In this document: positions 501 through 20,651 of the stretch, in pieces
Layout of the letters: every line of letters begins with the position of its first letter
Position numbering within the stretch: the first letter of the stretch is position 1
From: an uncultured archaeon
GTDB taxonomy: Archaea; Thermoproteota; Bathyarchaeia; Bathyarchaeales; Bathycorpusculaceae
Direction: 5' to 3'
Assembly (NCBI GenBank): GCA_963782915.1
Contig: CAWALK010000018.1
Span: 1,994 to 65,993 of the forward strand
Length of the DNA: 64,000 nt
Notes under the pieces: generated by a model
The model's database searches: none
What the model was told of the DNA's origin: nothing
What the model saw: the letters and a program-made list of their open reading frames with translations, nothing else
Position numbers and translations under genes: made by a program

Positions 501-897
501 GTTGGGCTTGGGAAAAACTTGGTCTATTGCTTGTTTTATTACGTCTAATTCGTTTCTTGTTGTTTGCAAGAGTGGTTGCGAGGAGGTTTATTTCTCGTCC
601 GTAACTGTCCTCATCTATTTCTCCAACAACATGTTGAATTTCGTAGTTAGCGAGAAGCATTTCTAATGTTTTGAGTTGACCTTCTAGTTCTTGGGTTTTT
701 GCTTGCATTTTTTCTGCGAGTTCTTTTCGTTGTTTTTCGATTTCAGTTATTGCTGAGTTGATGTCGCCTGTGAAAGAGTCGCGTGTAGCTTGCGAGATTT
801 TGCCTGTTACAAAAAGGTTGTCTAAGGCTTGCTTCTTTTTCTTAGCTATTTCGTATTCTTCATTTAATCGTTTAAATGTATATTTCCATGAAATCAC
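1..897 (-). CDS. CdvA-like coiled-coil protein with long Pro/Val/Glu/Ala-rich tail (frameshifted, runs off window)
   Basis: GTG start at 897; ISWKYTFKRLNEEYEIAKKKKQALDNLF...LLANYEIQHVVGEIDE resembles TACK CdvA-like coiled coils; PVEA-type repeats continue to position 1 across frames. Confidence 0.65.
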
Positions 898-1310
898 GTT
901 TAGGGCACCATAGCATCCTAGGGTAAAATAAGAGTTAACGTTTGTTAACATGCACATATATCGCTAACTATTAAAAAAGGGTTGGTATGCAGAAAAATGG
1001 AAATTTTAAAGTAAAAAAGGTTGTCTTTGTATGGGTTTATGTATATAAATAGTGAAATTTTTCTTGAAATTAAGATGGGATAAGATGACATTTCCATGTA
1101 AACTATCGTGTATGCTAGAAGCATATTATGTAGCTATATATGAAATCTTAGTGGAGGTTTTAGGAGGTTTTTTTTCGTTGGAAGCAGCTTGCAGGTTTTG
1201 GGAGGTTTGTTTTGTTTATACTTTTCCATGTTTGTTATAACTTATTATTCTAAATCCGAATAAGTCTTATATATCTAAACAAGAATAAACAAATCGAGTC
1301 GTGCAAAAAC

Positions 1311-1682
1311 ATGGTAGCATTAACAATAACAGTAAACGGAGAAAAATCCGAAGCAAGAATAATCAAAAAAATGCATGAACGCGTAATCAAAAGCTTCATG
1401 GACACAATAATAATGGCTGAACTACAAAACGGACCTATAAGCGGATACGACGTAATATCATTCATACACAACAAATTCGGCTTCCTCGCCAGCTCAGGCA
1501 CAGTCTACTCACTACTCTATTCACTTGAGCGCAACGAATTAGTCGAAGGAATCTGGATTGAACGAAAAAGAGTCTACAAACTCACCGAAAAAGGCGCAAA
1601 AACCATCGCAACCATCCTCAAATCCCATGAAAAAATCAAAGGGTTCATGTCAACAATCCTCAAAGCCCAAACACCCCATTAA
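1311..1682 (+). CDS. PadR-family winged-helix regulator
   Basis: ISGYDVISFIHNKFGFLASSGTVYSLLYSLERNELV...RVYKLTEKG. Confidence 0.85.
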   Translation: MVALTITVNGEKSEARIIKKMHERVIKSFMDTIIMAELQNGPISGYDVISFIHNKFGFLASSGTVYSLLYSLERNELVEGIWIERKRVYKLTEKGAKTIATILKSHEKIKGFMSTILKAQTPH

Positions 1683-1762
1683 CAGTTTCTTTTTATCACT
1701 AATTCAATAGAAATACTAAAAAACCCCTTCGTGTTTTCCTATCAGCCGCAACGAATCTTTGC

Positions 1763-1840
1763 GGGTCCGTAGCTCAGTCAGGCTAGAGCATCGGACTTTT
1801 AATCCGGGGGTCGCGGGTTCAATTCCCGTCGGACCCGCCA
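1763..1840 (+). tRNA. tRNA-Lys (UUU), CCA encoded; provirus integration target
   Basis: Acceptor GGGTCCG/CGGACCC, anticodon loop CTTTTAA, T-arm GGGTTCAATTCCC, G73-CCA. Confidence 0.97.
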
Positions 1841-2377
1841 GAATTTCGTTCATTTATACCGTTATTTTTCCCTTTCTTTTTTTCTCAAGTAGAATTCTAA
1901 GGTCCGAAAAACCGTAATTTGTCATTTCAGCAGATGATCCGCCGGAGAAAACTCTATAACAGATGAGTTTTACTTCAAGGGCATTTACCCGGTGGAGGTC
2001 CTTCTGGCGTGCAAGATGGGCTGGTTGAGGTTCGGGCAAAAACTACTTTTCTCCATACCAGCGCATATTCAGATGGGAAACGTCAGGTTCGAATCGGTGT
2101 GACACAGAAGCGTTGGGTCAGGAAGGGCGAAATTTTGAAAGTTCCGTTTCGGCACGTTTGGTCGCATCGGCGCCGAATGGCAAAAGGACACTTTTGTAAA
2201 TTAAACAGTAGTCATCAACTTCCAAGCGCCACCTAATTTCCTTCCAATGCTTGAGGGGGAGCAGTAGACTTTGGCGCCAAGGAAATGCAAGGGCACACCG
2301 CTTAAGAATGTTTAGTGGCAAAGAGGCCATTCCAAGTCTTAAAAAGTATAAATGACCCATGCGAATAAATATCAACT

Positions 2378-3213: not shown

Positions 3214-3331
3214 AGGCGCTCCCTAACGGCCCACCTTCAATAATATTCTTCTTAAAGCTCTACAATCTCATCCTGTTTGGTTGGATAAAATTTTAATCCC
3301 AAGTTCCCGTAGCTCTTGGGCATGCTTGACT

Positions 3332-3349
3332 TACATGTTAACGGTTATA
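3332..3349 (+). promoter_or_regulatory. Putative viral late promoter, copy 1 (TACATGTTAA-cgg-TTATA)
   Basis: Same motif at 10858, 11934 and 20589; lies 53 nt before the packaging operon. Confidence 0.6.
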
Positions 3350-3384
3350 TTGACAACGCCTAAGAAGGGACTGTTGATGAAACA

Positions 3385-3661
3385 ATGCTCAAACCGAACT
3401 ATGAGGAACTCGCCTGCAAAATTCATCTTAGCATACGAGGTCATAGGGATAAGAAAGGCAAGTTCGATTGGTCTGGCGCTGTTTTGGATGCAGGCATAAT
3501 CAGCGGTATCACATTTTTCACGGGGCTTGGTACTTTAGCGTCTAGCTGCTGCCATTTCTCCTACGAGCTTTTGTGTGCTTCTCAGTGCGGTTGGGGCTGA
3601 GTTTCTTGGGATCTTAGCGACTAAAAGAGGGCTTGTACAAAAAACCGTTGGGAGCTGTTAA
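3385..3661 (+). CDS. Small membrane protein, holin-like candidate (frameshifted)
   Basis: FDWSGAVLDAGIISGITFFTGLGTL...EFLGILATKRGL; about two hydrophobic helices with a basic C-terminus. Confidence 0.4.
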
Positions 3662-3664
3662 GAA

Positions 3665-4231
3665 TTGGAAGCTAAGACGACTTTGCGTGTACCTGACTTC
3701 ATGAAGCCTATTCTTGAAGACATTAGGCTTTTGCGCTCAGATGGAAACAACCCAAACAGGATGACGAACAAGCAAAAAGAGGAACTGTGGAAAAGCCTAG
3801 AGGAGTTTGGCTGGACTGACCCCATCCTCACAAACCAAGATGGCGTTTTTACTGATGGGGAGCAACGGGTTAGCGTCTGCATTGCCCATGGAGAGTTTTA
3901 TGCGCCAGTATATCGCATGAATGACCTTTCCGAGGTACAGCGGCGCCGACTCAGATTGATCGCCAACGAATTGAAGGGCAAGCACAACAAAGAACTGGAA
4001 GAAGAGGAGTGGCAGCGCATTATCGAGTTAGGACAACGCGAAGAGCTAGAGTCTTTTCTTGATTCGATTGGGGAAAAGCTGCCTGAAACATTAAGGGATG
4101 AACACGAGAAGGTTTCCATTATCCCTGAAACTTACGAGTTAATTGTGGAGTGCAAAGATGAAGCCGACCAGAAAGCCAAGTTAGAGGAGTTGCAGGCCAA
4201 GAGTTGGAAGGTTCGGGTTCTAAATCTTTAG
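3665..4231 (+). CDS. ParB/Srx N-terminal domain protein
   Basis: NPNRM...LWKSLEEFGWTDPILTNQDGVFTDGEQR...RLRLIANELKG. Confidence 0.8.
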   Translation: MEAKTTLRVPDFMKPILEDIRLLRSDGNNPNRMTNKQKEELWKSLEEFGWTDPILTNQDGVFTDGEQRVSVCIAHGEFYAPVYRMNDLSEVQRRRLRLIANELKGKHNKELEEEEWQRIIELGQREELESFLDSIGEKLPETLRDEHEKVSIIPETYELIVECKDEADQKAKLEELQAKSWKVRVLNL

Positions 4232-4243
4232 GAGGCTTCGAGG

Positions 4244-4994
4244 TTGGATTTTGATTTTACTCACCGGTGGCAGGCTGGCAATTCTTTCCGTGAAGAAGCC
4301 GTTAAAGGCACCTATGACCTCAAGGATGTCAAGTTGGAGAAGCGTATCTGCGGAAGCCTTCCAATTGAGGGTTTGAATTGGCAGATCGGCGTTATAGTCG
4401 GGTCCAGCGGCAGCGGAAAAACCAGCATAGCCCGCCATCAGTGGCCTGAGGCTTACTTTGCTGATTTAGCGGGAGCGCTATAAGCAACCTTGTTTTCTCA
4501 ACGATTTCCCACCTGAGCTAAGCATCAAAGACATCGAAACTGCCCTATGTAGCAGCGGATTTAGCGAGCCGCCTTCTTGGCTGAAAAGCTATGCCGTGCT
4601 AAGCCAAGGGCAAAAGATGCGTGTGGATGTTGCCCATGCGCTTTGTCTTCCCCAAAACTTGGTTGTCTTCGATGAGTTCACAAGCACCGTGGATCGCACT
4701 GTCGCCCAAATCGGCAGCTATGCGATTAGCCGCGCCGTCCGAAAGCATCCGGGTAAACAGTTTATCGCCGTAACCTGCCATTTTGACGTGCTAGATTGGC
4801 TTGAGCCTGACTGGGTTTATGATGTGGACGCTAACGTTTTTTGGGATTACACGGGCACATTGCAGGAGCACAAGACGGCTTTTGGAACCCAAGTTAGGAG
4901 TGTAAAAAAAAACGACGTCACCCGCCAATCAACTTATCAGTGCATAGGTGCAACCTTGCCATGTGGCAGGTGTTTAGGGAACATCACTATCTAA
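4244..4994 (+). CDS. Soluble ABC-type ATPase (COG2401-like), probably fused or coupled to the downstream GNAT (frameshifted)
   Basis: Walker A GSSGSGKT, signature LSQGQ, Walker B VVFDEFTS, H-loop VTCH. Confidence 0.85.
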
Positions 4995-5395
4995 ACACTA
5001 AGGCTCTTGGGGCTGGCGTGCGATGTTATGTCGCCAAATATGGGGATAAACCCATTGCGTTTATTGCAGTTGCGAATGTGCACATGAAGGTGCAGTATTA
5101 TCGGGTCAGTCGGCTTGTTGTCCTGCCAGATTATCAAGGTATTGGCGTGGGTAGGCGGCTGCTGGATTTTATGGCGGACCTCTACACACGGCAGACTAAA
5201 CGTCCTTTCTATATTGTAACAAGCAATCCTCAGCTTGCACGTGGCTTGGCGAATTGGAAGGTTAAGCGGTTTGGGCATGGCAGTTCGGGAAGAAGTAACA
5301 CAAGAATAAATCGGGGGCTGGTTAAAGCGAACAGTAGAGGGCGCTTGACATTCACATTAAAGTATGTTCCAAAGATGGGAGCGCCTAAACAATGA
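4940..5395 (+). CDS. GNAT-fold acetyltransferase
   Basis: EHHYL...RVSRLVVLPDYQGIGVG acetyl-CoA binding motif A. Confidence 0.85.
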   Translation: MHRCNLAMWQVFREHHYLNTKALGAGVRCYVAKYGDKPIAFIAVANVHMKVQYYRVSRLVVLPDYQGIGVGRRLLDFMADLYTRQTKRPFYIVTSNPQLARGLANWKVKRFGHGSSGRSNTRINRGLVKANSRGRLTFTLKYVPKMGAPKQ

Positions 5396-5450
5396 CTTCT
5401 TTTTTTCGCTTTTCTTGGACAATTATTGGTCCAAAATATGGGGGTACCCT

Positions 5451-5969
5451 ATGGAACCTGAGTTGTTTAAGCGTCGCCAACGAATGCTTCGGCTTATTGG
5501 CCGTCGGGAACTCGCTAAGCGCTATTGTGCAGACTTTAAGTGCGGAGTTTCAATGTTCAGCGAATGGGTAATTTACAAAGATCATAAACGGATGAAAACC
5601 TGGGTCGCATGCTTTCGAGCAAGATGAAGCAGTTGACTTCTATTCTGCGGGCGCGGTTGGACTTCTTGAATCGTGAAGCCATGGGTCTTGCTAACTGAAG
5701 GCGGCGACAAGAAGCCGCTAAGCGTCAAGGACAAGTTTGTGAAGATTGGTGCTCTAAATACTGCTCTGAAAATTACGGTTGAGCAAATTAAGGTTGGGCA
5801 GGAACTTGGGTTGATTGAGAGAAAACCCGAAGTTATTCAATCAGCGGTTAGTTTGGCTATGCCTTTTGAGGCGTCGCCTGAGATTAAGGCTGCCTACGCC
5901 AAATTTGCTGAAGCTCAAAGGGCTGACAAGGATGCCACTACAAAAGCTGAATCTGACGCCGGGCACTGA
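5451..5969 (+). CDS. Putative terminase small subunit (HTH; frameshifted)
   Basis: HTH-like N-terminus (SEWVIYKDHKRM) and helical C-terminus; overlaps the start of the large terminase. Confidence 0.55.
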
Positions 5970-7202
5970 TTTTCTGCGGTATGCTCCGCATCCTGCCCAG
6001 CTTCCTTTTCACGCTGGCAAAGGCATCTATAGTCAACGGGCTTGTCTCTGCGGAACTGGGTCGGGAAAGACAAAATGCGGGTTAGCTGAGGATATTCGTT
6101 GGGCGCTGGATTATCCTGGGAGCGTCGGCTTCATTTTTGAGCCATCTTACCCAATGATGAAGCGTATTCTATTCCCAACTTTGGAGAGCAAAGATTTCTT
6201 TGGTTGCCGTTATCCGTTTACGCAGAATCCCTATGTGGCGGACTTTAACCGTGGGGATATGCGGCTGGATTGGTTTAACGGTTCGCAGTGGTGGTTTGTC
6301 TCGCTGGATGATCCAGAAAAGGCCGAAGGTCCTAACGTCGATTATGCGCATATTGATGAGGCTCGGCTTGTTCGCCACTTCGATACTGCGTGGCTTACTG
6401 TTGTGCGTAGGCTTCGCAAAAGTGGCCGCTGCATGGTTCCAATTAACCCAGGCATTTGGCTTACAACAACGACCGATTCTCCTGGCAGCCCTTTGTATAA
6501 TATCACGGAGAACCCTGAGACGAATTCGCCTAATATGCGGATTTACCGTTGGAGCATCTTTGAGAACCCAACCTTGCCCAAAGAATTCTTGGCGGAAATT
6601 GTGCGAACCCACACCGGCGGCTTAGCTGACCGCTTTATCTACGGCAAATTTGCCACTGTCGCCGCGGGTAGCTTGCCCTTTGACTCTTCAAAGCATATTC
6701 GGGAGTTGACTGATAAGGCGTTGATTGATAGGGTTAGCTTTGGCGTTGACTTCGGTTGGAGTGCACCCTCGCGCTATTGTGGTGAACGCTTTTGACCCTG
6801 ACGGCAGAGCCTACGCAGTGGATGAGTTCTATAAACGGGAAACGACAGATGAAGAGTTAGCCGAGGCAGCCAAAGACTTGCAAGAGGAATGGGGTGAGGG
6901 AACGTTTTGGTGTGATGCCCGCTTTCCCCAGTCAATTTTGAAGCTTTGCCGTGCAGGTTTAGACGCTAAGCCCTATACTTTCAAACGTGAAGATGGGTTG
7001 CGGGAGCTTGGAAGCCGCCTAACTCCTGCGAGTGATGGGAAGCCCCGCCAGTTTGTAAGCAAACGTTGCGTTAACCTGATTAGTGAATTGTTGGAGTATC
7101 GGGAAGACGTCAAAGAAAACGACCATGCGACTGGATGCTTTGCGGTATAGTTTGCCACTTCAGTTAGAAGAGAAGCCGTTTTTGTATGTTGTTCGGCGCT
7201 AA
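5932..7202 (+). CDS. terL: Terminase large subunit (frameshifted)
   Basis: PHPAQ Q-motif, Walker A GTGSGKT, Walker B YAHIDEAR, nuclease GVDFGWS and ENDHATDALRY. Confidence 0.93.
7041..7202 (+). repeat. Terminase 3' end, copy A (repeated at 10935-11093)
   Basis: attagtgaattgttggagtatcg...gttcggcgc is present twice. Confidence 0.95.
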
Positions 7203-7217
7203 GGGACTGTCGCAAAC

Positions 7218-10200
7218 TCACTTGTAGGTCCATTTACCGATTATTTTTTGGGGAGGCAAACGCACTGTGAACGTTGTGCCATTTCCTTCTATGCTTTCAA
7301 AAGTTACTGTTCCGTTTAATGCTTCAGTCATGCGCTTAACCACTGCTAACCCTAAGCCTTGACCTTTAGATTTTGTCGTGAACAATGGAGTGAAAAGCTT
7401 CGGCTTAACTTTATCAGGGATGCCTATACCGGTATCTTGAACAGTGATGACTGTGTCTTCTGCATCCAGATGCGCCCTCATGGTTAGTTGGCCTCCATTT
7501 GGCATCGCTTGAACGGCGTTAGAAACCAGATTCCCAAGAATGCGCTTTAATATAATGCTGTCAACCACAATTGTTTTAACAGGTCGTCTCGATATTGCAC
7601 GAAGCCTTGATGTTTTTAGGCATGTCTTTTCCTTGGAGCAAATTCTGTACAAAGGCTTCCAAGTCAATTTTTTGAGTTGCAGGATTAATCGTCTTAGCGT
7701 AATCTTGAAGGTCAGCTACAATCTTGTTAATGTAATCAACGTTCTTTTCTATCTCTTGCAGGCTTTCTAATACACTCTTTTTTTCTTCACTATCGGGTGT
7801 TGAATCCAATTCTGTTTTAGCCAAGTAAATGTCGCTAGTGATAGCCTGTAGTGGATTGCGAATATCATGCCCAACCATTCCAGCCGTCTCACCTATGGCA
7901 GCCATTCGCTGAGCCCTCTCAAGTTTTTTCCTATCATCAATATCAACAAAGGACAAAACGGCGCCATCTATCCTGTCGTCTTGCGTTATGTAGGGTCGAA
8001 TTTGCATTTCAAAATAATGACCTTTCTCATCTTTTACTTCTCTGGTGAAATAGCTTAGTTTAGAAAATACTTCTGAAATTATTTCGCTCAAGTCGTCAAC
8101 TATAATGTTCAGTTTGATGGTCGTTATTGGTAATCCAACTGTTGCAGGTGACAGATTCAGAGTTTTCTGTGCTGAAGGCGAAAATAGCCTAATCTTTAGA
8201 CTCTTATCGATTATGACAATAGCTGGACCCACGTTCCTATTTATGTTGGTTAAGTCATCGTTCAGCTGAGAAAGCGTTTGGTTTCGGTTCTTCACCTCAT
8301 CATTCAACGTTTTCAATTCTTCATTGCTAGACTGAAGCTCTTCTTTAGCTGTTTCCAACTCTTCGTTTGTGCTCTGCAACTCCTCATTACTCGACTGCGC
8401 CTCCTCCATAGTGGTTCTAAGCTCTTCGTTGGTTGCTTCCTGAGTTTCAATAATCCTCTGCACAGTTTGTTTAGTTGACTCCAATTCTTCCCTGAGCTCT
8501 CTATTTTGGCGGTCCTTAAGGTTTTCTCGACCTTCAGGAGAAATATTTAATTCCATCGTTTGGCGTAAAAGCTTCGCAGCTGAACTTACATCTTCGAATA
8601 ATAGAAGGAAAAACGGTGCCTCATACCGTTCAACATGTATGGGAACAACTTGTATGTTAACTGTTCTCTGTTCTCCAGCATATTCAAACCGCACGGCATT
8701 CTCTTTGACAACTTTTTTCTCTTTTTTTGCCCTATAAATTATCGTTTCGACTTCAGACCTTAACTCTTTGCGAATAATTTTAGCAAGGTTCAAACTTGCT
8801 AATCCAGATTCGGGCAATACATATGATGCTATATTTCCTCGAAAAATTAGAACATCCAAATCAACATTAACTAGCAAGGCGGCAGGAACATACTCGGTGA
8901 CTAACAAACGGTCAACCTCGTCTTTCAACTCTGCAAGGACATCTTTTCTGTCGGCTGCTTTACCTTCTTTAGGTTTAAAATATGGCGTTGATGCTTCCAG
9001 ACCAAAAGTGATACGGGGCGGTGCGATCTTCTTCGTGTAGATTGCAGCCCTTTTTGCTTACAGATTCAAATAATTGAGTGAATTTTCCAATACTTTCAGA
9101 TTGCCCTAAGACCAAAAAGCCACCTATTTTTAAGGCGTAATGAAGAGTCGGCACTACTTTTTCGTGTAGTTGTTCGTCAAAGTAAATGAGCATGTTGCGG
9201 CAGCTGATAAGATCCATGTTAGAGAATGGTGGGTCTGCAGTTATGTCTTGCTTTAGCGAAAACACACATATCTCGAATATTTTTACAGATCTGATAATGT
9301 CCGTTGAAGCTTGTGAAGAAATGTTTTAGTCGTTTTTCGGGTAAGTCGGTTTCTATAGTTTTTAGGTATATTCCTCGTCTTGCTTTTTCAACGTTTCTTT
9401 CGTTCACGTCCGTGCCGAAAATTTGAACCTGAATATTTGTTATGGATTTTTCTTCGAGGAACTCTTGTAGTGCAATTGCGAAGGAGTAAGCTTCTTCACC
9501 TGTTGAGCACCCTGGAATCCAGACACGAATGGTTTCATTGGGCGGGCGGTTTTTCACTAATTCTGGAAACACCGTTTCTTTCAAAGCTGTGAATGTTTCA
9601 GGTTCTCTAAAAAAACTTGTCACTCCGATTAGCATATCGTTGTATAGTGCTTCCAGCTCGTTTGGATGCTTCAGCAGGTACTCTGCGTAATCAGCCATTT
9701 TTTTAATGTTGTTGATAACCATTCGACGTGCGATCCGCCGATTTACGACGGTTTCTTTGTAGTGTGAGAAATCCACCTTGAAACTACTTTTTAGCATAGT
9801 GAATATTGCTTTTAAGGGTGTTCCCAATTCTAGCTTTGCATCATTTGGTTCAGTATCTTCTCTTGACGCGATTTCGCTTCGTGCTAGTTGAGGGTTATAG
9901 CGATTTTTTGTAGTTGTAAGGCCATCTGGTCTGGAGATAGAACAAAATCTGCAGCTTCGGCTGTAATGGCACTTTGGGGCATGTCACCATACTGGGCAGA
10001 ATTTGGAGTTTGTGCGAAAGTGATGCCTCCTTGAGCTTTGATGGCTTTTAGACCTTCAGTTCCATCAGAGCCTGTTCCCGAAAGCACGATACCTATACTA
10101 TGATTTTTCGAGTCCTGGGCCAGGGAAGCAAAGAAAGCGTCAATTGGTTTAACCGAAGACGTACCCTTTGGGTGAAGGGTGAGTAACTTGTTTTCCATGG

Positions 10201-10552
10201 TCAAGATAGTTCCGGACGGAATCACGTAAATATGGTTTGGTTCAACTGGTATCTTATCTTTCACTGTTTGGACGTGCATTTTGGTTAATCTTGAAAGAAT
10301 GTCGGATAGCATGCTTTCTTGGCCAGCCGCAAGATGCTGGATAACAACAAAAGACAAGCCGGTATCTGTTGGTAAATATTCTAGCAGACTTTTGAATGCA
10401 TCTAAGCCGCCGGCTGAGGCACCAATTCCAACTATGGGAATACCTTGTTTGTCTTGGTCAGAAGATTTCTTATTAGAACGCTTGGCTGCTTTTTTTTGGT
10501 TTTCGGGAATTTCGTTCCCCCCCCCCACAAAAGAATTGAAAGATGCCATCAA
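7218..10552 (-). CDS. CheB-CheR-PAS-histidine kinase fusion, copy 1 (frameshifted)
   Basis: CheB GASAGG/QH/SGTGSDG; CheR WIPGCSTGEEAYS, DLISCRNMLIYFD; EELQSTNEEL coiled coil; PAS; H-box GHDIRNPL; HATPase NLVSNAVQA, DTGIG, TTKSKGQGLGL. Confidence 0.9.
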
Positions 10553-10856
10553 GATACTCCAGATGAACAGTGGATATAGTGATGTACTGGCTACTGCATA
10601 AAAGGTTTATGCGTACGGTAAAGTAGTTATTTTTTCTCTGTTTCGCCCCAAATATCTATCGCAAAGCTGGTTAGTGCCCAATGCCATCCTCGCTTCTCCG
10701 CTATCTGTTCTTCGAATTGCTTTTCTAAGCGTTTGTTCATTCTAAGGATTCTACGGCTTATCTGGGGCGAGTGACTTTAAAACGCTCAAGCTCAGCCCAT
10801 ATATCTTTTGGGCAACAGACCTGGAGAGGCTGCCACATAGGGGATTCGCACATAGG

Positions 10857-10940
10857 CTATATGTTAATTCTTATAAACTGACTTGATGATAGGGCTATTT
10901 TGTGTAGGCAGCTCTGGGGAAAGCGGTAAGCTTTAACCTC
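10857..10940 (+). repeat. Truncated copy of the head-operon promoter/leader (full copy 11933-12018 and beyond)
   Basis: ctatatgttaattcttataa...gatagggctattttgtgtaggcagctctggggaaagcggtaagct is present twice. Confidence 0.95.
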
Positions 10941-11093
10941 GTTAGTTCTAGTAAACGCTATGTTAATGTAATTAGTGAATTGTTGGAGTATCGAGAAGAT
11001 GTTAAGGAAAACGACCATGCGACCGATGCTTTGCGGTATAGTTTACCGCTTCAGTTAGAAGAGAAGCCGTTTTTGTATGTAGTTCGGCGCTGA
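10935..11093 (+). pseudogene. Orphan terminase C-terminal fragment, copy A'
   Basis: Encodes ISELLEYREDVKENDHATDALRYSLPLQLEEKPFLYVVRR*; no start codon or upstream ORF. Confidence 0.9.
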
Positions 11094-11340
11094 GGCATAA
11101 GTTGCCCTAGTGATTTTGCTTATTGCCTGTTTTACCTTTTAGAGCCTTATAAAGAGCTTCGAGCTTTCTTCAAATCCTTTTGCCTCGGCACCTTACGCCG
11201 ATTCGGCAAAGAATGATTGGTTGAAATACCACTTGTATATAATTTAGCCACTAAACCCAAACTTTTTATGGTGCTAGAAACAATAGCAAAATGTCATATC
11301 TTTAAATAATATAATCCAGTTGAATTTCTGAGGTTTTTCT

Positions 11341-11607
11341 GTGCATAGAAATGAAGCTGTTGACTTGCTAAAAGAAATACTTGAAAACTGCATAAACATT
11401 ACACAATACGGCATCGCCATTATGCCACCTAACTCCAATGACGTAATGTCAAAAAATTTTCAAATACACGTATTTGGAAATGTTAACAAGCTTGATACCT
11501 CATGTTTAGAGTCCATTATGAAAAAGAGTTGCTTGCAACTAAAATTAATACAGGAAAAGAACCTACTTGTGATATATCGACCAATGAAACCTGAAAGCGA
11601 CTGTTAA
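11341..11607 (+). CDS. Small hypothetical protein, paralog of 11618-11845
   Basis: MHRNEAVDLLKEIL...LLVIYRP. Confidence 0.7.
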   Translation: MHRNEAVDLLKEILENCINITQYGIAIMPPNSNDVMSKNFQIHVFGNVNKLDTSCLESIMKKSCLQLKLIQEKNLLVIYRPMKPESDC

Positions 11608-11617
11608 CTTCTTATCC

Positions 11618-11845
11618 TTAGACTAAAGCCTTCCTGTGAAAAATAACGATAGAGTCGCCTTCTTCCTTAACGTCCAAGTTACGCTTTTTGGCTACAGCCT
11701 TAATGAGTTGAGTATCTTTGGTTTTGATTCTAAGGATGGATAGTTTGGTTTCATCCTGTCGCTCAATAGAAACAGAATCCGGCGAAAGGTTAATGTCTTC
11801 ACCCAAAAGTGCCTTTAGGTAATCTATCGCGTCGTTTCGGTTCAT
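11618..11845 (-). CDS. Small hypothetical protein, paralog of 11341-11607
   Basis: MNRNDAIDYLKALL...SIVIFHR. Confidence 0.7.
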   Translation of the reverse strand: MNRNDAIDYLKALLGEDINLSPDSVSIERQDETKLSILRIKTKDTQLIKAVAKKRNLDVKEEGDSIVIFHRKALV

Positions 11846-11933
11846 TAATACCTAATTTAAGTATGCTTGTCTGTTCATTTAAGACTTGTTATGAGCACCA
11901 ATTTGAAAATTTTTGTTTTAGCCCAGCGTTGAC

Positions 11934-11951
11934 TATATGTTAATTCTTATA
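11934..11951 (+). promoter_or_regulatory. Putative viral late promoter of the head operon (TATATGTTAA-ttc-TTATA)
   Basis: Motif shared with 3332, 10858 and 20589. Confidence 0.65.
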
Positions 11952-11986
11952 AGGCTGATTGTGAGTGATAGGGCTATTTTGTGTAG

Positions 11987-12072
11987 GCAGCTCTGGGGAA
12001 AGCGGTAAGCTTGACCTCTCCCCGGGGCTGCGGGCTTGCCTTTTCCCCATGGGTTGACCGAAATTTCGGGTC
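11987..12072 (+). other. Structured 5' leader of the head operon
   Basis: 13-bp stem GCAGCUCUGGGGA/UCCCCGGGGCUGC (2 G-U pairs) enclosing an AAGC-GGUAA-GCUU hairpin; second hairpin at 12056-12072. Confidence 0.5.
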
Positions 12073-12081
12073 TGTTGCTGA

Positions 12082-12945
12082 TTGAGTGAAGGTTTGGGCT
12101 GTGGGAAATGCAAGCGAGTTCATGAGCAGATAGCTCAGATTCTGCCTTTTCGGGTGCTGGAAGCCGCTGAGGGTAAGCCATTGCGGATTGCAGGCGTTGC
12201 TATGACTGCGGGCATGTCCCGTAACCACAACGTTTACACTTCTGAAGAGTTGGAGGCTTTTGCTCCTAAACTTGTCGGGGCACCCATCTATCTTGAGCAT
12301 GTCACCGTTGAATCAGCCATTGGAAAAGTTACTAACTGCGTTTTTGATGCCCAATCCAAGAGCTTGCGGTATGAAGCGGAGATTTACGACCCAACTATGG
12401 CTGAGAAGATCCGTCAGGGTTTGATTCAGCATGTGAGTGTTGGGGCAGACTACGATGCACTTGATACAGCCAACGTGCCGCATGGGTTGCATAACGCGGA
12501 GATGTCGCTTGTTGCAGTGCCCGGTATTCCCGAAACCAACATCCAAGTTTTAGAGGCTTTACGACAGAAGGGGGTTGGGGGTTTGGAAGAAAAAGACATT
12601 GAAAGTGTCGCTGAGAAAGTCGCTGCTAAGATCGGCGAGAAAAATTCCCTTGAAATTGAGGGTCTGAAAACAAAGCTTTCGGAAGCGGAAGGTAAGTTGG
12701 CGGCTTCTGAGGGTAAACTTGCCGAAGCCAACAGGACAGTTGAGCAGCTAAAGCAGCTTGTACCCGGTGTGGACTTGCTGAAGAATCCGCCTAAACTGAT
12801 GCCTGTCTCTGAAGCTGTCAAGATGGTTAAGGAAGCACTGCCTGCGCCAATGATTCAGCGTTCATGGGGACTTGGCCCTCAACGCATGTGTCAGGACCTG
12901 CAGCGTGTCGTCCAGAAACTTGAGACTAGGGCTGGTGGCAAGTAA
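12082..12945 (+). CDS. Prohead maturation protease with scaffold-like coiled-coil C-terminus
   Basis: GVAM...SRNHNVY...PIYLEH...HVSVG...EMSLVAVPGIP; coiled coil follows. Confidence 0.85.
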   Translation: MSEGLGCGKCKRVHEQIAQILPFRVLEAAEGKPLRIAGVAMTAGMSRNHNVYTSEELEAFAPKLVGAPIYLEHVTVESAIGKVTNCVFDAQSKSLRYEAEIYDPTMAEKIRQGLIQHVSVGADYDALDTANVPHGLHNAEMSLVAVPGIPETNIQVLEALRQKGVGGLEEKDIESVAEKVAAKIGEKNSLEIEGLKTKLSEAEGKLAASEGKLAEANRTVEQLKQLVPGVDLLKNPPKLMPVSEAVKMVKEALPAPMIQRSWGLGPQRMCQDLQRVVQKLETRAGGK

Positions 12946-13158
12946 ATGGCTGAGAAATCTGCCGAGGGAAAACTCCACGAAGTCGATGACACAGAAGCTG
13001 ACGCCGTTATCGAGTTTGCAAGCAGGGCAATTCCTCATAACGAGATGCTTGGCCGTGTTGTCCGCAATATGTACAAGCGGATTCAGCAGTTAGAAGCCCA
13101 AGTTAAGGACCTGCAAGCGAAGCCCAAAAAGGCTGCCGCTAAAGTTGGAGGTCCATAA
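12946..13158 (+). CDS. Small head-module hypothetical protein
   Basis: Abuts the protease stop codon; coiled-coil C-terminus. Confidence 0.55.
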   Translation: MAEKSAEGKLHEVDDTEADAVIEFASRAIPHNEMLGRVVRNMYKRIQQLEAQVKDLQAKPKKAAAKVGGP

Positions 13159-13236
13159 GTTTTGCTCACTTTTGTGGGGCTAGTAGCGCCAGGACGAACT
13201 GGTGTGAACGCAGAAACAATAGGGAGATTGATTTAG

Positions 13237-13662
13237 ATGACTGATTTAACTGGAAAATCTTGGATGGCTATAGGCGAAACTGACGATCCAAACGCTGTTA
13301 TAGAATCTTTTGAAGCGGCTGCAGGCATCACCAAAGGCTCACCGGTTTACTTGAGTGCAGACGATAAGGTTTCCGCCAGCCCAGGCGGAGACAACGCAAT
13401 AGGAATTGCAGTGAAAACCGTTTTGACTGGTCAACAGTGCCCAGTGCTAACCCGTGGGAGAGTCAAAGTGACGGCTGGCGGCGCTATAGCAAGAGGTACA
13501 GCGGTTTGCAGTGCTGCTGCTGGCAAAGTGATTCAACTTGTCGATCAAGCTGTTGACGAGGGCGGCGCTGCGAAATACACAATTTTCTTCAACCGCAAAC
13601 TTGGCTATGCACTAGAGACTGCTGCGCAAGATACCGACCTGCTGTTTATTGAGGTGGGATAA
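13237..13662 (+). CDS. Capsid cement/decoration protein (DUF2190-like)
   Basis: AAAGITKGSPV...AIGIA...VLTRGRVKVTAGGAIARG; directly upstream of the capsid gene. Confidence 0.75.
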   Translation: MTDLTGKSWMAIGETDDPNAVIESFEAAAGITKGSPVYLSADDKVSASPGGDNAIGIAVKTVLTGQQCPVLTRGRVKVTAGGAIARGTAVCSAAAGKVIQLVDQAVDEGGAAKYTIFFNRKLGYALETAAQDTDLLFIEVG

Positions 13663-14615
13663 TGAAGCCCAAACTCTACGAGTCATTGATGCAGAAAGAC
13701 GCTGGATTCAAAGAAGTCATGGAAAAACTCAAGCTGAAAACTGACCATCCATTCCTAAAGCGCTATGCGCTTATGGGTGTGAAGGAAGGCTTTTTCAGCG
13801 ACATGTCAGGCGCTCTTGGCAGAATGCATGATACGATGGTTGATGCTGCATGGCCTGAATTGATTGGCCGTAGCATAATCAACGTAATGCCAACCAACGA
13901 AGCCATGGAACGCTTCCCAATCGATGCAGGCGCAATTGCTTACGAATACGCTGAAGGCACTATTACCCGGCTCTCAGGCAAAAAAGCCTCAACTGTTGAC
14001 ATCAACGCAAACATTCTGGCAGACTCTTCAGATGAGTGGACAAGGGAATACCTTGAAGACGCATCTTGGAACGTCATGGACCGTGCAACACAGAACATCG
14101 GCAACGCTTTAGGAGTTAAAGAAACCGAGAAGATTCTGGCACTATACACTGCTGTTTTAGCTGCTGACTTAGCTACTGGCGCAGACCTTGCAGGCGGCGG
14201 TACTGTGATGAGTTGGACAAAACTGCTTAGCTTGTGGCATGCTGTTAAGTCTGAGAAGCGAAGAGCAACTGTTATCGCCCTAAACGATATGCAGGTTGCA
14301 CAACTCCTCAACGATAGCACTTTCACAAACGCACAGTCTTTACCCTCAGCACAAACCGACCTCGAAGCCGGCGTTGTCAGTGGCGCTTTGGGCATGAAGA
14401 TTGTTTCAAGCCCACTTGTCACCAACGGTGTTGCATTCGCCATCGATACACGTGTTGCCTCCGCGATGCTTCTGCGCCGAGACGTAACTGTCGAGGACTG
14501 GGAAGATGTCAAGAACGGCAAATACGGTGTCAGAGCCACAACTCGCTTCGGCTTAGGCGTCCTAGATTCCAAAGGCATTGCAAGAATGACAAACATCAAG
14601 ACGACAATCACTTAA
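13662..14615 (+). CDS. HK97-fold major capsid protein
   Basis: Size, position and C-terminal LLRRDVTVEDWEDVKNGKYGVRATTRFGLGVL pattern. Confidence 0.88.
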   Translation: MKPKLYESLMQKDAGFKEVMEKLKLKTDHPFLKRYALMGVKEGFFSDMSGALGRMHDTMVDAAWPELIGRSIINVMPTNEAMERFPIDAGAIAYEYAEGTITRLSGKKASTVDINANILADSSDEWTREYLEDASWNVMDRATQNIGNALGVKETEKILALYTAVLAADLATGADLAGGGTVMSWTKLLSLWHAVKSEKRRATVIALNDMQVAQLLNDSTFTNAQSLPSAQTDLEAGVVSGALGMKIVSSPLVTNGVAFAIDTRVASAMLLRRDVTVEDWEDVKNGKYGVRATTRFGLGVLDSKGIARMTNIKTTIT

Positions 14616-14631
14616 GCGGTGCATTCGCCCG

Positions 14632-14649
14632 TTTTTCTTCCCCTTTTTT
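14632..14649 (+). terminator. Possible oligo-T terminator after the capsid gene
   Basis: tttttcttcccctttttt pyrimidine tract shortly after the stop codon. Confidence 0.35.
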
Positions 14650-14680
14650 GGGTTATCAAATCATATCGGGGTCTAAGCAT

Positions 14681-16018
14681 ATGAGTAGCGTTTACAGAAA
14701 AATCCGTGAGGTCCTCTCCTATGCGCCTGTTTCAGGCGTGGCAAAGCCAAATGGCAGAGTGTTCTTTGATACTTCCTGCATTCCCCTAATTGATGTTATG
14801 AAGCTCTATGAGCGTGACCCAACCTGCAAGGCAAGCGTGGATCTGTTGGCTGCCTCCACAGTTGGCATGGGCTTCTACACTACCGTGGACGAAAACTATG
14901 ATAAGGCTAAAGAAGCCAAAGCCGCCGTGGATAATTTCTGCGAAGACATCAACTTGGACGGCTTGCTAAACGATATGGCTAAGCCGCTGATTGGCTGCGG
15001 AAACGATTTTTGGCTTAAATTAACTCCTGACAAACTAACCGAAACCTTGCGCATGCCCATAGATGCAGTGCAACGCATCGGGCTCAGTAGTGTTCCCAAT
15101 CTATAGCTTACCCTACAAAGTCACAGGTTATCAACTCAAGAACATTCCTATCGCGGGCAAAGCTCGAGAAATGAGCTTAAACCTGAAGCGGTCATTCACT
15201 GGCGCCTTAACGGCGATATTCCCTCTGGCTACGGCGTTGGCTTGCTGCAGGTGCTTTTGCACACGTTAACCGTTGATTCGGATAAGCGTCCGGCTGTTGC
15301 TTGGATGAAAGCCAAAATCGAGCGCATAATGCCCAAGATTTTTGAGAAGTATGCGGGACCTGACGTTTTGGCGATGTTGGAGGGCGTCGATGAGGCAACG
15401 GTGAAGTCGTTTGAGCAGGCCATCAAGAATCGGGATGAAGAGGGCGCTTGGCTATTCTACAACAAAAAAATCGATTTAAAGCCTGTCACGATTGACCCCC
15501 GAGCACAGGGCTTTGTTTACTACATCGACCACATCATTAATCAGTTCTATTTGGGCTTGGAAACGCCTCTGCCACGGCTTTTTAGCACTCCAGGCTTTAC
15601 CGAAGCATCGGCAAGGGCAGCGTTGGACTTGCAGGATATGCTCATAAAACCCGTCCAACGCTACATCAAACGTCAAGTAGAACGGGAACTTTTCTCGCCT
15701 ATTGTTGCTCAAGCTGGACTTGATTCGATTAAGGCTAAGGTGCGGTTGAATTATGGCAGCCCCGAAACTCCAGAACTTAACTCTGCTGACCTCATCAAAG
15801 CCGCTGAAACTGGGTTGATTCGAGCAGAGGAGTTCCGTAAGAACGCTATCAAGTTTGGCTGGGAACTCTGGGAACAGAAGCCTACCGCGGCGACAGGGCA
15901 ACAGCAGACGGTTAGTCTTGAGGGTTTGCATGGAAGAAAAGGCGCAGGCAAGTATCTTGTGGTGGATTTAGGGAAGAATGAGGAGTCTGCTAAAGTTGAG
16001 TCTACTGGGAATAGTTAA
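14681..16018 (+). CDS. Portal protein (frameshifted)
   Basis: LYERDPTCKASVDLLA...GMG; HWRL...GYGVG; LGLETP...EASARA...IKPVQRYIKRQVE. Confidence 0.8.
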
Positions 16019-16307
16019 GGCTGTAGCTGCTGTACAGTTGGTTGGTGAAGCAAAAAGCCGTATTCCGGTTGGGTTGCAAGGTTTAACTTTCTATAGCCAA
16101 AGGGATGAATGGGTTTTTTTGTCGAGTGGTCACCCCAATATGTGCGCTGATTGCGCAGACTGTGATGGTAATGTTTTTTTGGGAACGGAATTGCGTAGTG
16201 CTTTTCCATATCACACAATTTTGGACGAGAATATTATTGCTGCTTCTGTTCATCCTAATTGCTCGTGTTTGCTATTGAGGGCTTTTTCTGCGGGACGTTA
16301 CATGTAG
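15978..16307 (+). CDS. Small MuF/SPP1 gp7-like minor head protein
   Basis: HPNMCADC...HPNCSC motifs; follows the portal gene. Confidence 0.55.
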   Translation: MRSLLKLSLLGIVKAVAAVQLVGEAKSRIPVGLQGLTFYSQRDEWVFLSSGHPNMCADCADCDGNVFLGTELRSAFPYHTILDENIIAASVHPNCSCLLLRAFSAGRYM

Positions 16308-16454
16308 TTACCCTTCAGCAATTCCCCTGCTGAGAGTTGTTCTTGCTGCGGAGCTGTTCTTAAGAAGGATGCGACAGTTTGTGAGAAATGTTAACAACAG
16401 CTAGATTCAGCTAATGATTGGTTTGGAGGACAATAAGACGTATCTTTTTTTGGC

Positions 16455-16500
16455 GAGTTTGGGCTGGGAATTGTGGGACGACAAAGCACACTCAAAATAA
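16455..16500 (+). pseudogene. Orphan portal C-terminal remnant
   Basis: gagtttgg(g)ctgggaattgtgggac...taa reads EFGWELWDDKAHSK* after removing one G; compare portal KFGWELWEQK at 15851-15880. Confidence 0.6.
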
Positions 16501-16517
16501 ACTCATTGTAGTGCCAT

Positions 16518-19500
16518 TTACCGTTTAGCTCTTGGGGGGAAACGTAAAATGAATTTTGTGCCTTTGCCTATTTCGCTCTCGAAAGTTATTTTGCCGCCTA
16601 ATGCCTCAGTCATGCGCTTGACCACTGCTAAGCCAAAGCCTTGACCCTTCGATTTAGTAGTGAAAAGCGGAGTGAATAGTTTTGGCCTAATTTCTTGTGG
16701 GATACCAACACCTGTATCCTGAACAGTTATGACAATATCGCCAGCATCCTTGACCGCATGAATATCAAGTTTTCCACCCTGCGGCATAGCCTGAACTGCA
16801 TTACTTACCAGATTACTTAAAATTCGCTTCAACATAGCTGGGTCAGCAATCGCCTTTTTCGCTTCTTTCTCGACTATGCATGAAGCGTCAATGTTTTTTG
16901 GAATACCATTATTAAGCAGCACTTCTTGGCAGAGCGCTTCAACATCTGTTTCCTGAACGGTTGGCTTGAGTGGCTTTACAAAGTCTTGTAGGTCTTGAAC
17001 AATCTTGTTAATGTACTCAACATTCTTCTCAATGCCTGCTAAACTTTCTTTCATGCCCTCTTTTGCTTCGCCTTCAGGCATCGAAGCTAAGTCAGTCTTA
17101 GCCAAATATACATCACTGGCAATTGCTTGCAAGGGATTACGAATATCATGCCCAACCATACCTGCAGTCGCGCCAATAGCTGCTAAACGCTCGGAGTCTT
17201 TGAGTTGACTTGGTTCGTTCTTCAACAAGCTTCTCCAAGTTCTTAGCATATTTATCAAGTGCCTCTTCAGCTTTTTTGCGTTTGGTAATATCTGTGAAGG
17301 ATAAGAATGCCCCGTCAATTTTCTTGTCTTCAGTTAGGTACGGTCGAATCCGCATTTCATAGAAATGGCCATCCAAACCCTCAACTTCTTGACTAACAGG
17401 AGTTAACTTATCGATTACCTCCGTTATCATCTTATCCAAGTCTTGAATATGAACTCCTGGAGTTATGTTGGCGATGGAGCCCCCAACATCGGATGGCGAA
17501 ATTCTCAAAAGTTCTTGGGCTGCAGCAGTGAAACGCCTTATCCTCAGGCCACTATCAACGATAACCACTGCGATGTCAATGTTGGTTTGCAGATTTGCTA
17601 AGTCATCATTTAGGCGACCAAGAGTCTGATTGCGGTTCTTAAGCTCCTCATTTAAAGTCTGCAGCTCCTCGTTGCTTGACTGCAACTCCTCTTTAGCTGT
17701 TTCGAGCTCTTCATTTGTGCTCTGCAACTCTTCATTGCTCGACTGAACCTCTTCCATAGACGACCGCAACTCCTCATTGGTTGCTTCCTGCCCCTCAACA
17801 AGCGTCTGCAAAGACTGCTTAGTTGCCTCCAAATCCTCCCTAAGCTCACGAATCTGACGATCCTTAAGACTCTCTACCTCGCACAGGCGAAACTGGAGCT
17901 TCAACTTCGTTGTCTTGAATGCAGATCATTTGAACGGTGTTTCGGTAAACAATACAAGGTAGAAAGGTTCGTCGTATTTCGGTGTTTCTAATGGTCTTAT
18001 CTCTATGCTAACTGTTTTTGGTTGCCCTTTTTGTTTAAGCGCACCGTTTCTTTGAAGGCTTTCTTTTCTTTCTTTGCTCTATAAATGGCAGTCTGAATTT
18101 GTGACCTCAATTCTTTTCGAATAATCTTTGTTACGTTAAAACTCGCCGCTCCTGATTCAGGTATAAGATAAGGAGCAACATCTCCACGAAAAACCAGTAT
18201 ATCCAAGTTATTGTTTACCAACAAAGTCGCTGGACCATACTCTGAGGTTATAAGATGGTCAACTTTATCCCCTAAAACAGTCAGCAGATCTGCTTTTTCA
18301 ATGCGGTTTAACTGATCTTCTTCGTAGCAGTGGAATAAAGGCTTCATTAAACAACATGTTGTGGCTGGGCTTGCTTCTTTCTGTAAATTAAGCCTTTTGT
18401 AGTAATTGGTTCAAACAAGTATTGGAATTTGCCAACACTTTCAGATTCTCCCAAAACTAGAAAACCATTGGGTTTTAATCCGTAATGGAAAATTGGCAAT
18501 ACTCTTTCGTGAAGATACGAGGTCAAAATAGATGAGAACATTTCGGCACATGATGAGATCTAAGTTAGAGAAAGGCGGATCGCTTGTTATGTCCTGCTTT
18601 GCAAATATGCACATGTCCCGGATGAGTTTTGTGATTTGGTAATTTCCGTTTTGCCTATTGAAAAAACGTTTTAGTCTATTTTCGGAAACGTATGTCTTCG
18701 ATAGTTTTTGGATATATTCCTTGACGAGCTTTCTCAATATTCTTTTCATTCGCATCCGTACCAAAAATTTGAACCCGTATCTCAGGCATGACTTTTTCTT
18801 CTAGGAATTCTTGAATTGCAATGGCTAAAGAATAGACTTCTTCGCCTGTTGAGCACCCCGGAACCCAAACACGGATGGATTCATCGGGTGACCTGTTTTT
18901 GATAAGTTCAGGAAAAACTTTTTCCTTCAAAGCCTCAAAAGTTTTTGGTTCTCTAAAGAAACTTGTCACGCCTATTAGCAGATCATCAAACAAGGCCTGA
19001 GGCTCATTTGGGTGGGTCCTGCAGATACTCGATGTATCCTTTCATGTTTTTGGTCTTATTTATGACCATGCGACGTGTAATGCGTCGGTTTATGGTTGTT
19101 TCTTTGTAGTGCGTAAAATCTACCCCGAAAGAAGTTTTTAGCATCATTATAATTTTTTTCAAGTCAGATTCTACTTTTTCTGGTTTGGTGTTTTTGTTTC
19201 AGAAGGAATGAGTTGAGGGTGATGGGCGATTCTCACTAGTTCTTTTGCTATCTGTTCTGGGGAAAGGATAAAATCGGGGTTTTCGGCATGCTATGGCGTT
19301 TTGGGCATGTCGGGGTATTGCGCTGTCTCTGGGTCTTGTGCGAAGGTTATTCCGCCTTCAGCTTTAATTGCTTTTAATCCTTCGGTTCCGTCATTGCCAG
19401 TTCCTGACATGACGATTCCAATTGCTTGGGTTTTTAGTTCCGAAGCTATGGAAATCATAAAGTCGTTGATGGGTTTAAGAGCTAAACCTTTGGGAACAAG

Positions 19501-19833
19501 CTTTAGGCAACCGTTCTTCAGCGTCATTGTTGTTCCTGGAGTGATGACGTAAACGTGGTTTTTTTCAACTTTCATGCCATCTGTTACTTGGAGAACCTTC
19601 ATTTTGGTTGACCGTGAAAGGATTTCGGGCAGCATGCTTTCTTGTCCAGTAGCTAGATGCTGGATAACAACAAATGACATACCCGTATCAACGGGCAAGT
19701 TCTCTAGCAGTTTCCTGATGGGGTCTAATCCGCCTGCAGAAGCGCCAATCCCAACAATCGGAAACTCATACGCTTTACCTTTGCCTTCAAGGGAAGCAGA
19801 TTCATCGAAAGTAGTTTTTATTTTGCTTGCCAT
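16518..19833 (-). CDS. CheB-CheR-PAS-histidine kinase fusion, copy 2 (frameshifted)
   Basis: Same domain order and motifs as copy 1 (GASAGG, GCSTGEE, EELQSTNEEL, GHDIRNPL) but clearly divergent in sequence. Confidence 0.9.
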
Positions 19834-19971
19834 AAGTTACCCATCTAGCTATTATGCTCTAATAATCTCGGTTCTAATTAATATTTAAACTTCCCTGAAT
19901 AGAACCTAAATTGAGCAGATAATTTAATGGAAAAATAAGCAGAAAAGATATCGGAGCTTGCACCTATTGGG

Positions 19972-20314
19972 TTAAGTTTTTTTATTTAATTCTTTTTTTG
20001 ATTCATCTATTTCCTTTTGGTGCTCCTTTGTAAATACATCAAGAAGGCGAATGGCGACTGGCGCAGCATCCTTTTCACTGTAGATACCCTTCTTTGTGTT
20101 TTCATGGAGCGTCTTGATAATTGAACTTTCAATTGAGTAATGATCTTTTCCAAACGTACTTTTTAAGGCTTGGTGAAAGGCATAAAGGTTGTTTGGAATA
20201 TCTTGGGGCTGAATTTGCATCTTTTCTTAGCTCACTGTAAAAGCGTTCTTTCTCAGCCAAAGACGATAATACCCTATCGATCACTTCAACCATTATCGCA
20301 TCAGAATTCGCCAT
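19972..20314 (-). CDS. DUF3227/NitrOD5-like archaeal signalling output-domain protein (frameshifted)
   Basis: EVIDRVLSSL...FY..L....IQPQDIP...F..ALKSTFG.....IE..IIKTL pattern. Confidence 0.5.
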
Positions 20315-20588: not shown

Positions 20589-20606
20589 TATATGTTAAGT
20601 CTTTTA
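20589..20606 (+). promoter_or_regulatory. Putative viral late promoter of the neck/tail operon (TATATGTTAA-gtc-TTTTA)
   Basis: Shared motif, 63 nt before the connector gene. Confidence 0.6.
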
Positions 20607-20651
20607 TGCGGTTCATTCCGTAACTTCAAATTCATTGAGGTTTAGTTTGCT

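Follow-up and report, generated by a model that had tools for sequence, protein, structure and literature searches.

The DNA analyzed here, referred to as the window, is a stretch of 64,000 nucleotides (nt) from an uncultured archaeon of the Bathyarchaeia; it corresponds to positions 1994-65993 of contig C18 in a 3.28-Mb genome of 25 contigs, which contains an archaeal 16S rRNA gene. The window holds, at about 3.3-29 kb, the late region of a tailed provirus, in which Pfam recognizes the genes of the large terminase subunit (TerL; Terminase_6N), a scaffold-like protein, a cement protein and an HK97-type capsid protein. Its terminase, cement and HK97-type capsid genes, located on an archaeal chromosome, mark the element as a Caudoviricetes-type provirus of Bathyarchaeia, and the close relatives of the region are all found in Bathyarchaeia metagenome-assembled genomes (MAGs) or in uncultivated viral contigs. 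For mapping fragments of the window, 41 related loci were used; L010 is the closed Bathyarchaeia chromosome OY970286.1, G000 is the source genome, and C8, C9, C11, C18, C19, C20 and C25 are its contigs. Our analysis focuses on the interval between the terminase gene and the head operon, where two blocks of cargo genes are stacked among repeated terminase ends and repeated promoter/leader sequences.

TerL lies on the plus strand at 5932-7202 (422 codons; Pfam Terminase_6N and tblastn of the joined frames). It is broken in the assembly by single-base insertions at 6770 and 7133, and its relatives give an unbroken 422-codon match with 93-98% identity. The start of the head operon (12082-14615, plus strand; Pfam) encodes a scaffold/protease-like protein, the cement protein and the HK97-type major capsid protein. 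What separates the two is a set of interleaved repeats in the order A...B'A'...B, an arrangement which the initial annotation had already described and which stands as it was given. Repeat A (7058-7204, plus strand) constitutes the natural 3' terminus of TerL, SKRCVNLISELL...VVRR*, and its homology with A' continues more weakly back to 7041. Cargo 1 (7218-10552, minus strand) is, according to Pfam, a CheB-CheR-PAS-HisKA-HATPase fusion that is split into four open reading frames (ORFs) by small insertions. The sequence upstream of B' (10645-10856, plus strand) is the 5' region of the opposite-strand CheB gene and travels with cargo 1; it is 99.5% identical to L010 and 86% identical to C19 of the source genome. 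B' (10857-10940, plus strand) consists of a truncated copy of the head-operon promoter motif and the 5' arm of the leader hairpin, and it meets A' (10941-11094, plus strand), an orphan TerL 3' end whose frame is intact at 10950-11094 and decayed at 10941-10949. Cargo 2 follows with two convergent paralogs, c2a (11341-11607, plus strand, 88 amino acids), a member of a small-protein family without a Pfam match, and c2b (11618-11845, minus strand, 75 amino acids). The last elements are A'' (11924-11932, plus strand), a 9-nt remnant (CAGCGTTGA) of an even older TerL end, and the abutting promoter of B (11933-12081, plus strand). B comprises the complete promoter motif CTATATGTTAATTCTTATAA and a conserved leader, about 100 nt in length and containing a long hairpin, and serves the head operon. 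Hence the window carries three layers of TerL ends (A, A' and A''). No integrase or other recombinase domain is detected by Pfam in 7205-11932.

B is probably a promoter plus leader: it is conserved directly upstream of the head operon in 17 loci, and the genome holds only four copies, one complete copy per provirus. B' (10857-10933) matches B (11933-12012) at 100% identity in two blocks, one of 20 nt and one of 47 nt, separated by 10-13 nt that differ; such blocks were matched in no shuffle. Compared with the B of L010, B' is identical at 77 of 77 positions. B' thus retains the promoter motif and the first 60 nt or so of the leader, and it faces A' and c2a. The leader is predicted to fold into a long hairpin (GGGGAAAGCGGTAAGCTT ... 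GGGCTTGCC(TT)TTCCCC), in whose apical loop B' is cut. This hairpin is conserved, but 0 compensatory pairs are observed, and therefore it remains a prediction.

The novel joint is the hexamer AACCTC (10935-10940, plus strand), where leader and terminase K-P-R codons overlap. In an alignment of 17 B alleles, those of L011, L012, L022 and L027 read AAGCTT(T)AACCTCTCCCC, which identifies B' as leader sequence through AACCTC (10940). At the K-P-R codons, TerL alleles read AAACCCCGT (L010) or AAGCCTCGC (L012), and A' reads (T)AACCTCGT. Given this variation of both B and TerL, the overlap amounts to 4-6 nt, depending on the parental alleles. The initial annotation had taken all six bases as shared; the extension of the leader to 10940 holds, but sharing over the full six bases is not established. 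A 24-mer across the joint has no exact match in the genome, viral and metagenome collections searched.

The two larger terminase ends are direct repeats: with one base removed, A (7058-7204) and A' (10950-11095) are identical at 128 of 144 positions (89%), and their longest perfect blocks measure up to 32 nt. From ISELL to the stop codon, the repeats differ by eight substitutions and TAA/TGA, every one of them synonymous. The initial annotation was right about this stretch, which left out two upstream non-synonymous codons, C to Y and L to V, located just before ISELL and within the eight codons nearest the joint. Over the 48 codons of the repeat, we count 13 synonymous (Sd) and 2 non-synonymous differences (Nd), that is, a synonymous divergence (dS) of 0.65 and a non-synonymous divergence (dN) of 0.018 (dN/dS 0.028). 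In neutral simulations that kept the observed numbers of transitions and transversions and placed them at random, the ISELL-VRR peptide stays unchanged in 17 of 200,000 runs, and two or fewer amino-acid changes over 48 codons occur in only 7 of 200,000 (p ~4e-5). The pattern of codon changes supports the view that A' diverged from A under purifying selection; because of this signature, A' appears to be the end of another functional terminase, as initially proposed, and not a drifting local copy. The nearest full-length TerL end to A' is likewise that of another virus, L010, with 132 of 144 identical positions (91.7%), slightly more than the 128 shared with A. The outcome that the initial annotation had named as refuting its view of A' is therefore not observed. 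In the hypervariable LQLEE codons, a single variant is common to A, A', L010 and the orphan end L030. Relative to the TerL frame, A' shows a 2-nt deletion and a TAG at 10935-10949. The changes of A' cluster beside the joint (window 10935-10978), and the remaining 117 nt contain synonymous differences only. Its Tyr codon recurs in the unrelated orphans C20_e2 and L031b.

The relatives reveal what the interval looks like in other viruses. In L010 the order is intact TerL, A, an intact CheB-CheR-PAS-kinase gene, the upstream sequence, a complete B and the head gene; the kinase, orthologous to cargo 1, is there a single ORF of 1101 amino acids. Window positions 7205-10933 are 96-100% identical to L010, and the final kilobase before the joint 99-100%; the comparison over 3727 nt yields 100 mismatches and five frame-breaking indels. 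The gap between the TerL stop codon and B is empty in the six viral contigs L038, L039, L040, L042, L046 and L048, where the stop directly abuts the B promoter, and this stop position is that of A'' in the window. Other proviruses carry 1-5 kb of unrelated cargo in the same slot: a PAS histidine kinase together with a c2a-family gene in L012, and secreted or unrelated proteins elsewhere. Beyond the repeats, on their right, other genomes become the closest relatives. Window 12.6-19.8 kb is 92-98% like L011 and L012 and only 70-88% like L010, which makes the provirus a recombinant; a second CheB-CheR kinase at 16.5-19.8 kb falls within this L011/L012-like arm. As far as the alignments tell, the left part is L010-type up to mid-leader, and the right part starts within a terminase that belongs to another virus.

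These comparisons bear on another conceivable origin, a local tandem duplication of the interval from the TerL end to B within one genome, after which the copy would have drifted and the inner cargo been replaced. It would produce exactly the observed order A..B'A'..B. Yet a dS of 0.65 with a dN/dS of 0.03 is unattainable for a non-coding copy that drifts, cargo 1 and cargo 2 are unrelated, and the flanks trace to different relatives; we regard such an origin as extremely unlikely.

Our leading interpretation, in which we place about even confidence, is that the locus is the scar of a single illegitimate exchange between two sister viruses, one of them unsampled. Throughout this virus family, the gap between TerL stop and B is a cargo slot, which some members leave empty and others fill with 1-5 kb of host-like genes. 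The first parent would be L010-like, with the order TerL-A-[CheB-CheR-PAS-kinase]-B-head; the second, unsampled parent would have the order TerL-A'-[two small kinase-associated genes]-B-head and an L011/L012-like right arm. One out-of-register crossover or replicative template switch may have occurred at the 4-6-nt match between the leader-hairpin loop of genome 1 and the terminase K-P-R codons of genome 2. The product would possess one complete terminase and one complete promoter/leader and hence be viable, with both cargoes in tandem; A' would be the displaced terminase end of the second parent, and the truncated B' would face A' and cargo 2. The essential parts are indeed complete in the window: it has a single whole TerL, save for two single-base insertions that are likely errors of the consensus, and a single whole B, which precedes the head operon.

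Several observations weigh against the exchange as outlined. The right parent, a full TerL ending in A' and followed by cargo 2, is absent from all collections searched. The initial annotation had suggested searching metagenomes for a terminase whose 3' end matches A', and none of the A' type was found: a degenerate search with the peptide KRYVN(L/V)I returned no terminase in metagenome or viral contigs, and in a comparison of the A'-type C-terminus with 5.8 billion proteins the full-length terminases all read SKRCVNLI. The Tyr and Val of A' occur in no full-length TerL, and the best full-length match stays at 91.7%. Moreover, a stop codon and the 2-nt deletion crowd the joint; the model accounts for these features of A' only with additional mutation near the joint or a rare donor allele. 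Positions 7060, 7069 and 7075 show a reciprocal pattern that would be expected of a different route, via a circle. Finally, the physical continuity of the structure is given by the contig alone, and the regional consensus shows signs of mixed haplotypes.

That different route is the one favored in the initial annotation: a circle [TerL end - CheBR kinase - B'] closed at AACCTC, with Campbell-type integration into a sister provirus that carried cargo 2. The layout A..B'/A'..B is exactly what this route predicts, and equally what a single unequal crossover predicts; the layout part of the proposal therefore stands, while the specific route is not established, since one crossover suffices. At 7060, 7069 and 7075, A is of the L011 type and A' of the L010 type, and from 7084 rightwards A is L010-like, which would place a crossover near 7080; in addition, cargo 1 resembles L010 more strongly (up to 100% identity) than does the TerL body (93-96%). 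Mini-circles built on a promoter and stem-loop are documented for the promoter-early stem-loop (PeSL) cassettes of T4-type phages, with crossovers localized to the stem-loop's loop (PMC2839356). On the other hand, the circle requires two events where one is enough, A' still departs from L010 at 4 of the 26 positions that lie left of the presumed exchange, and the pattern is broken by positions 7154 and 7157 as well as by four private changes of A'. Furthermore, L010, L011 and L012 states form a fine-scale mosaic across the entire terminase, which makes three sites weak evidence. The circle is thus a possible route that we hold to be improbable; on parsimony we weight the single exchange about twice as heavily, and the sequence cannot separate the two. 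We infer a single intermolecular event rather than a circle, and likewise that the event is recent.

The extra G in A, which was already recorded in the initial annotation, turns out to be one of many such insertions. This G (7133) is present in the window and absent from all of the more than 20 relatives. Relative to L010, L011 and L012, the window contains insertions at 3547, 4470, 5427-8, 5494, 5553-4, 5607, 5632, 5690, 6770 and 7133; relative to L010, further insertions are located at 7581, 9045, 9255 and 10517, with one deletion at 9894, and relative to L011 there are eight more insertions in the head genes. In total, coding sequence in window 3300-16300 displays about 20 window-specific insertions of 1-3 nt versus one deletion. 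In the TerL-side alignment, 11 of 12 inserted bases lie at most 2 nt from a site that is polymorphic among the relatives, and several insertions resemble both alleles written in series, such as ATTTAG+C+GGGAGC. In the rest of the genome, ORF lengths are normal, with 983 ORFs of at least 300 amino acids in 3.28 Mb. The extra G and the other insertions are probably consensus errors from merged reads of at least two provirus variants; alternatively, they may reflect real decay of the provirus. Under either reading, the extra G is uninformative on recombination. A terminase of the same family, protein P0026 (717 amino acids, JGI/Logan), contains an intein (PF14890) at DHA/(C...HN)C/DALRYS; this spot in the nuclease motif is also that of the extra G of the window.

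The poor consensus of the provirus, with its insertions beside polymorphic sites in an otherwise normal genome, also invites the suspicion that the structure itself is an artefact, either two provirus variants strung together or a chimeric read in the contig; moreover, the joint is matched in no other record. However, assemblers join sequences at homology, and this joint shares only 4-6 nt and has a sequence found in neither parent, so that it must be present in one molecule or read at the minimum. It is very improbable that a random chimera would fall co-linearly into one and the same 5-kb slot of two sister viruses, and analogous joints exist in independently assembled genomes (C20/L031, L013, L022). 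We therefore consider an artefact quite unlikely.

These analogous joints belong to a wider set of about 10 independent orphan TerL ends in 28 genome loci. Their right edge is always the natural stop codon and their left edge varies, with starts between TerL residues 268 and 386 and, at the extreme, in the last three codons, and with lengths of 9-465 nt; those outside proviruses carry stops and frameshifts. The most elaborate case is an array on C20 (~259.0-262.6 kb), which consists of a terminase end of 317 nt with cargo, a terminase end of about 150 nt with cargo, a B that breaks off after AATTCT and continues into the final ~45 nt of a terminase, again with cargo, and a complete B. Judged by its sequence, the fusion is a second, independent joint of a truncated B to a terminase end, with other breakpoints and also in the source genome. 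The first two units of this array recur in L031, another genome with another context, at 91.7% identity. The array (259047-262648), with three terminase 3' ends, three cargo genes, two of them for paralogous secreted proteins, and the B promoter/leader, lies in a region of about 10.5 kb between the ribosomal protein L30 and L15 genes (C20:254305-264886), which includes a transposase-like ORF and has no surrounding provirus. Elsewhere, the closed genome L013 has a 48-nt TerL tail within the slot, L022 a TerL-end vestige of about 45 nt abutting B, and L011, L012, L021 and both C20 promoters a vestige of 12-23 nt; altogether, such vestiges abut B in 7 of 13 cargo-bearing slots. The breakpoint in B falls in the hairpin loop in the window and in L034 and in the promoter in C20. 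The orphan unit of L034 (L034:12461-12536) stands isolated and combines a terminase end, an ABC-transporter ATPase as cargo and a B that is cut at GGTAAGC, in the hairpin loop as in B'; the unit precedes a ParB-like gene as well as a large ORF that belongs to another packaging module.

Such recurrence is an argument for a cassette system, recombinase-independent or site-specific, in which the TerL end and the hairpin leader act as paired capture linkers in an integron- or PeSL-like manner. The frequency of independent orphans, the arrays of terminase ends and cargo outside proviruses (C20, in part common to L031), the loop cut shared by L034 and B', and the vestiges next to B are all in line with it. 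What speaks against it is that the left breakpoints in TerL spread over 465 nt and those in B differ, that no recombinase gene lies in or beside the slot, that each provirus has one complete B (4 copies in the genome), and that the orphans outside proviruses, with their stops and indels, look like decaying remnants. The variable left edges and the missing recombinase argue firmly against a site-specific mechanism, and we consider a cassette system unlikely. More specifically, the TerL end and the hairpin leader could be matched linkers for recombinase-free stacking of cassettes, where every capture would supply a new terminase end and the previous one would stay as a datable layer (A, A', A''), the loop would be a preferred point of breakage or template switching, and the host would keep the arrays of host-like signaling genes as islands once the virus has decayed (C20/L031, L027, L034, C19); we find this doubtful. 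The orphan-end pattern fits illegitimate exchanges filtered by viability, in which a whole terminase and a whole promoter/leader survive. The possibility that orphan ends are expressed as decoy peptides was rejected, given the stops and frameshifts outside proviruses and the lack of a start codon before codon 11 in A'. That the 20-mer of the B promoter might be a widespread cassette joint was likewise rejected, on account of its mere four copies in the genome.

With regard to the cargo itself, genes of the c2a family directly follow histidine-kinase genes at a number of host loci (C8, C19, C25), and within the slot of L012 such a gene accompanies the PAS histidine kinase; proteins of this family are candidate kinase partners. 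The family comprises proteins of 75-90 amino acids at C8:9038-9280, C9:4308-4550, C19:108350-108595, C25:1982-2215 and L012:11310-11546. The convergent c2a/c2b pair is kept in the JGI contig L051 (1.5 kb), where the c2b homolog has 64% amino-acid identity; neither a terminase end nor B is present on this 1.5-kb contig. Relatives of c2b were not found in the genome contigs or viral contigs of the collections searched, the L051 homolog being the only hit, and cargo 2 has no close match among 300 genomes of the family.

Further observations concern the provirus as a whole. It adjoins a tRNA-Lys gene, as in L010 (window 600-2100), and Rfam gives no match over the region apart from the flanking tRNA. 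The host flanks of the window and L010 are only 79-86% identical, in contrast to 95-100% for the viral parts, which points to a recent spread of the virus between host species. The second CheB-CheR kinase (window 15873-20700) is inserted relative to a sister structural module (C11:134281-148827) and is common to provirus L011 (88-96%). A second core gene also has its end duplicated after a cargo gene (window 28381-28488 and 28929-29036; 36 amino acids, 56% identity), in a pattern like that at the terminase.

Among known systems, one close in kind is moron accretion, the illegitimate-recombination model of tailed-phage mosaicism reportedly developed by Hendrix, Juhala and colleagues and summarized in PMC2839356. 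Common to both are non-essential host-like genes between core genes, a joint of a few bases, intact essential genes and signals, and variable breakpoints. The present case differs in that both parental gene ends are retained, which makes the event directly readable, and in its Bathyarchaeia host, its chemotaxis-type signaling cargo and the availability of one parental layout at 96-100% identity. Integrative elements that bring a replacement 3' end for their target gene, at attachment (att) sites in tRNA or protein genes, resemble it insofar as the incoming DNA supplies a new gene end, which keeps the gene intact, and pushes the former one downstream, where it stays as an orphan direct repeat; here, by contrast, no integrase is found in or beside the insert, there is no fixed core, and the orphans measure between 9 and 465 nt. 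Tandem-duplication joints arise from unequal crossing-over or from microhomology-mediated template switching of the type known as microhomology-mediated break-induced replication (MMBIR) or fork stalling and template switching (FoSTeS). They share with our locus the joint of unit end to unit start with a few common bases and the extra changes beside it, but the units here originate from two diverged genomes with different genes. Integron cassette arrays likewise stack promoter-served cargo units serially at one site; unlike them, the slot lacks an integrase, an attC-like site and a fixed point of recombination.

The PeSL cassettes (PMC2839356, PMC4122927), the system described so far that comes closest, share the conserved promoter and the G-rich stem-loop that border cargo. 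Since B' and B flank A' and cargo 2 on both sides, with a predicted hairpin, these repeats would likewise permit a cargo-bearing circle. The differences are that PeSLs are many per genome and recombine together by homology, whereas B occurs once per provirus; that the joint described here connects B to terminase and not B to B; and that the archaeal promoter is of another type. We conclude that the locus is a well-preserved but mechanistically ordinary case, i.e. a known kind of event, cargo accretion by illegitimate recombination, in an archaeal virus, and that it reveals no new mechanism.

Its value lies in the preservation. Mosaic joints usually come into view only once the duplicated ends are gone, which leaves the event to guesswork; this locus, from a little-studied group of archaeal viruses, still has the two parental ends and the hybrid joint, and one of the parents and the empty site are on record as well. 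The arrangement may also be unstable: homologous recombination between A and A' (3.9 kb apart) or between B' and B (1.1 kb) could delete either cargo and restore a parent-like layout, and the perfect blocks of up to 32 nt in A/A' and of 47 nt in B'/B make these repeats plausible substrates for such deletions. Two specific deletion products and circles are thus predicted. The provirus offers a testable example of host-type signaling genes, a CheB-CheR kinase and small partner genes, being stacked into a virus, and the recombinant would unite the kinase with two candidate partner genes.

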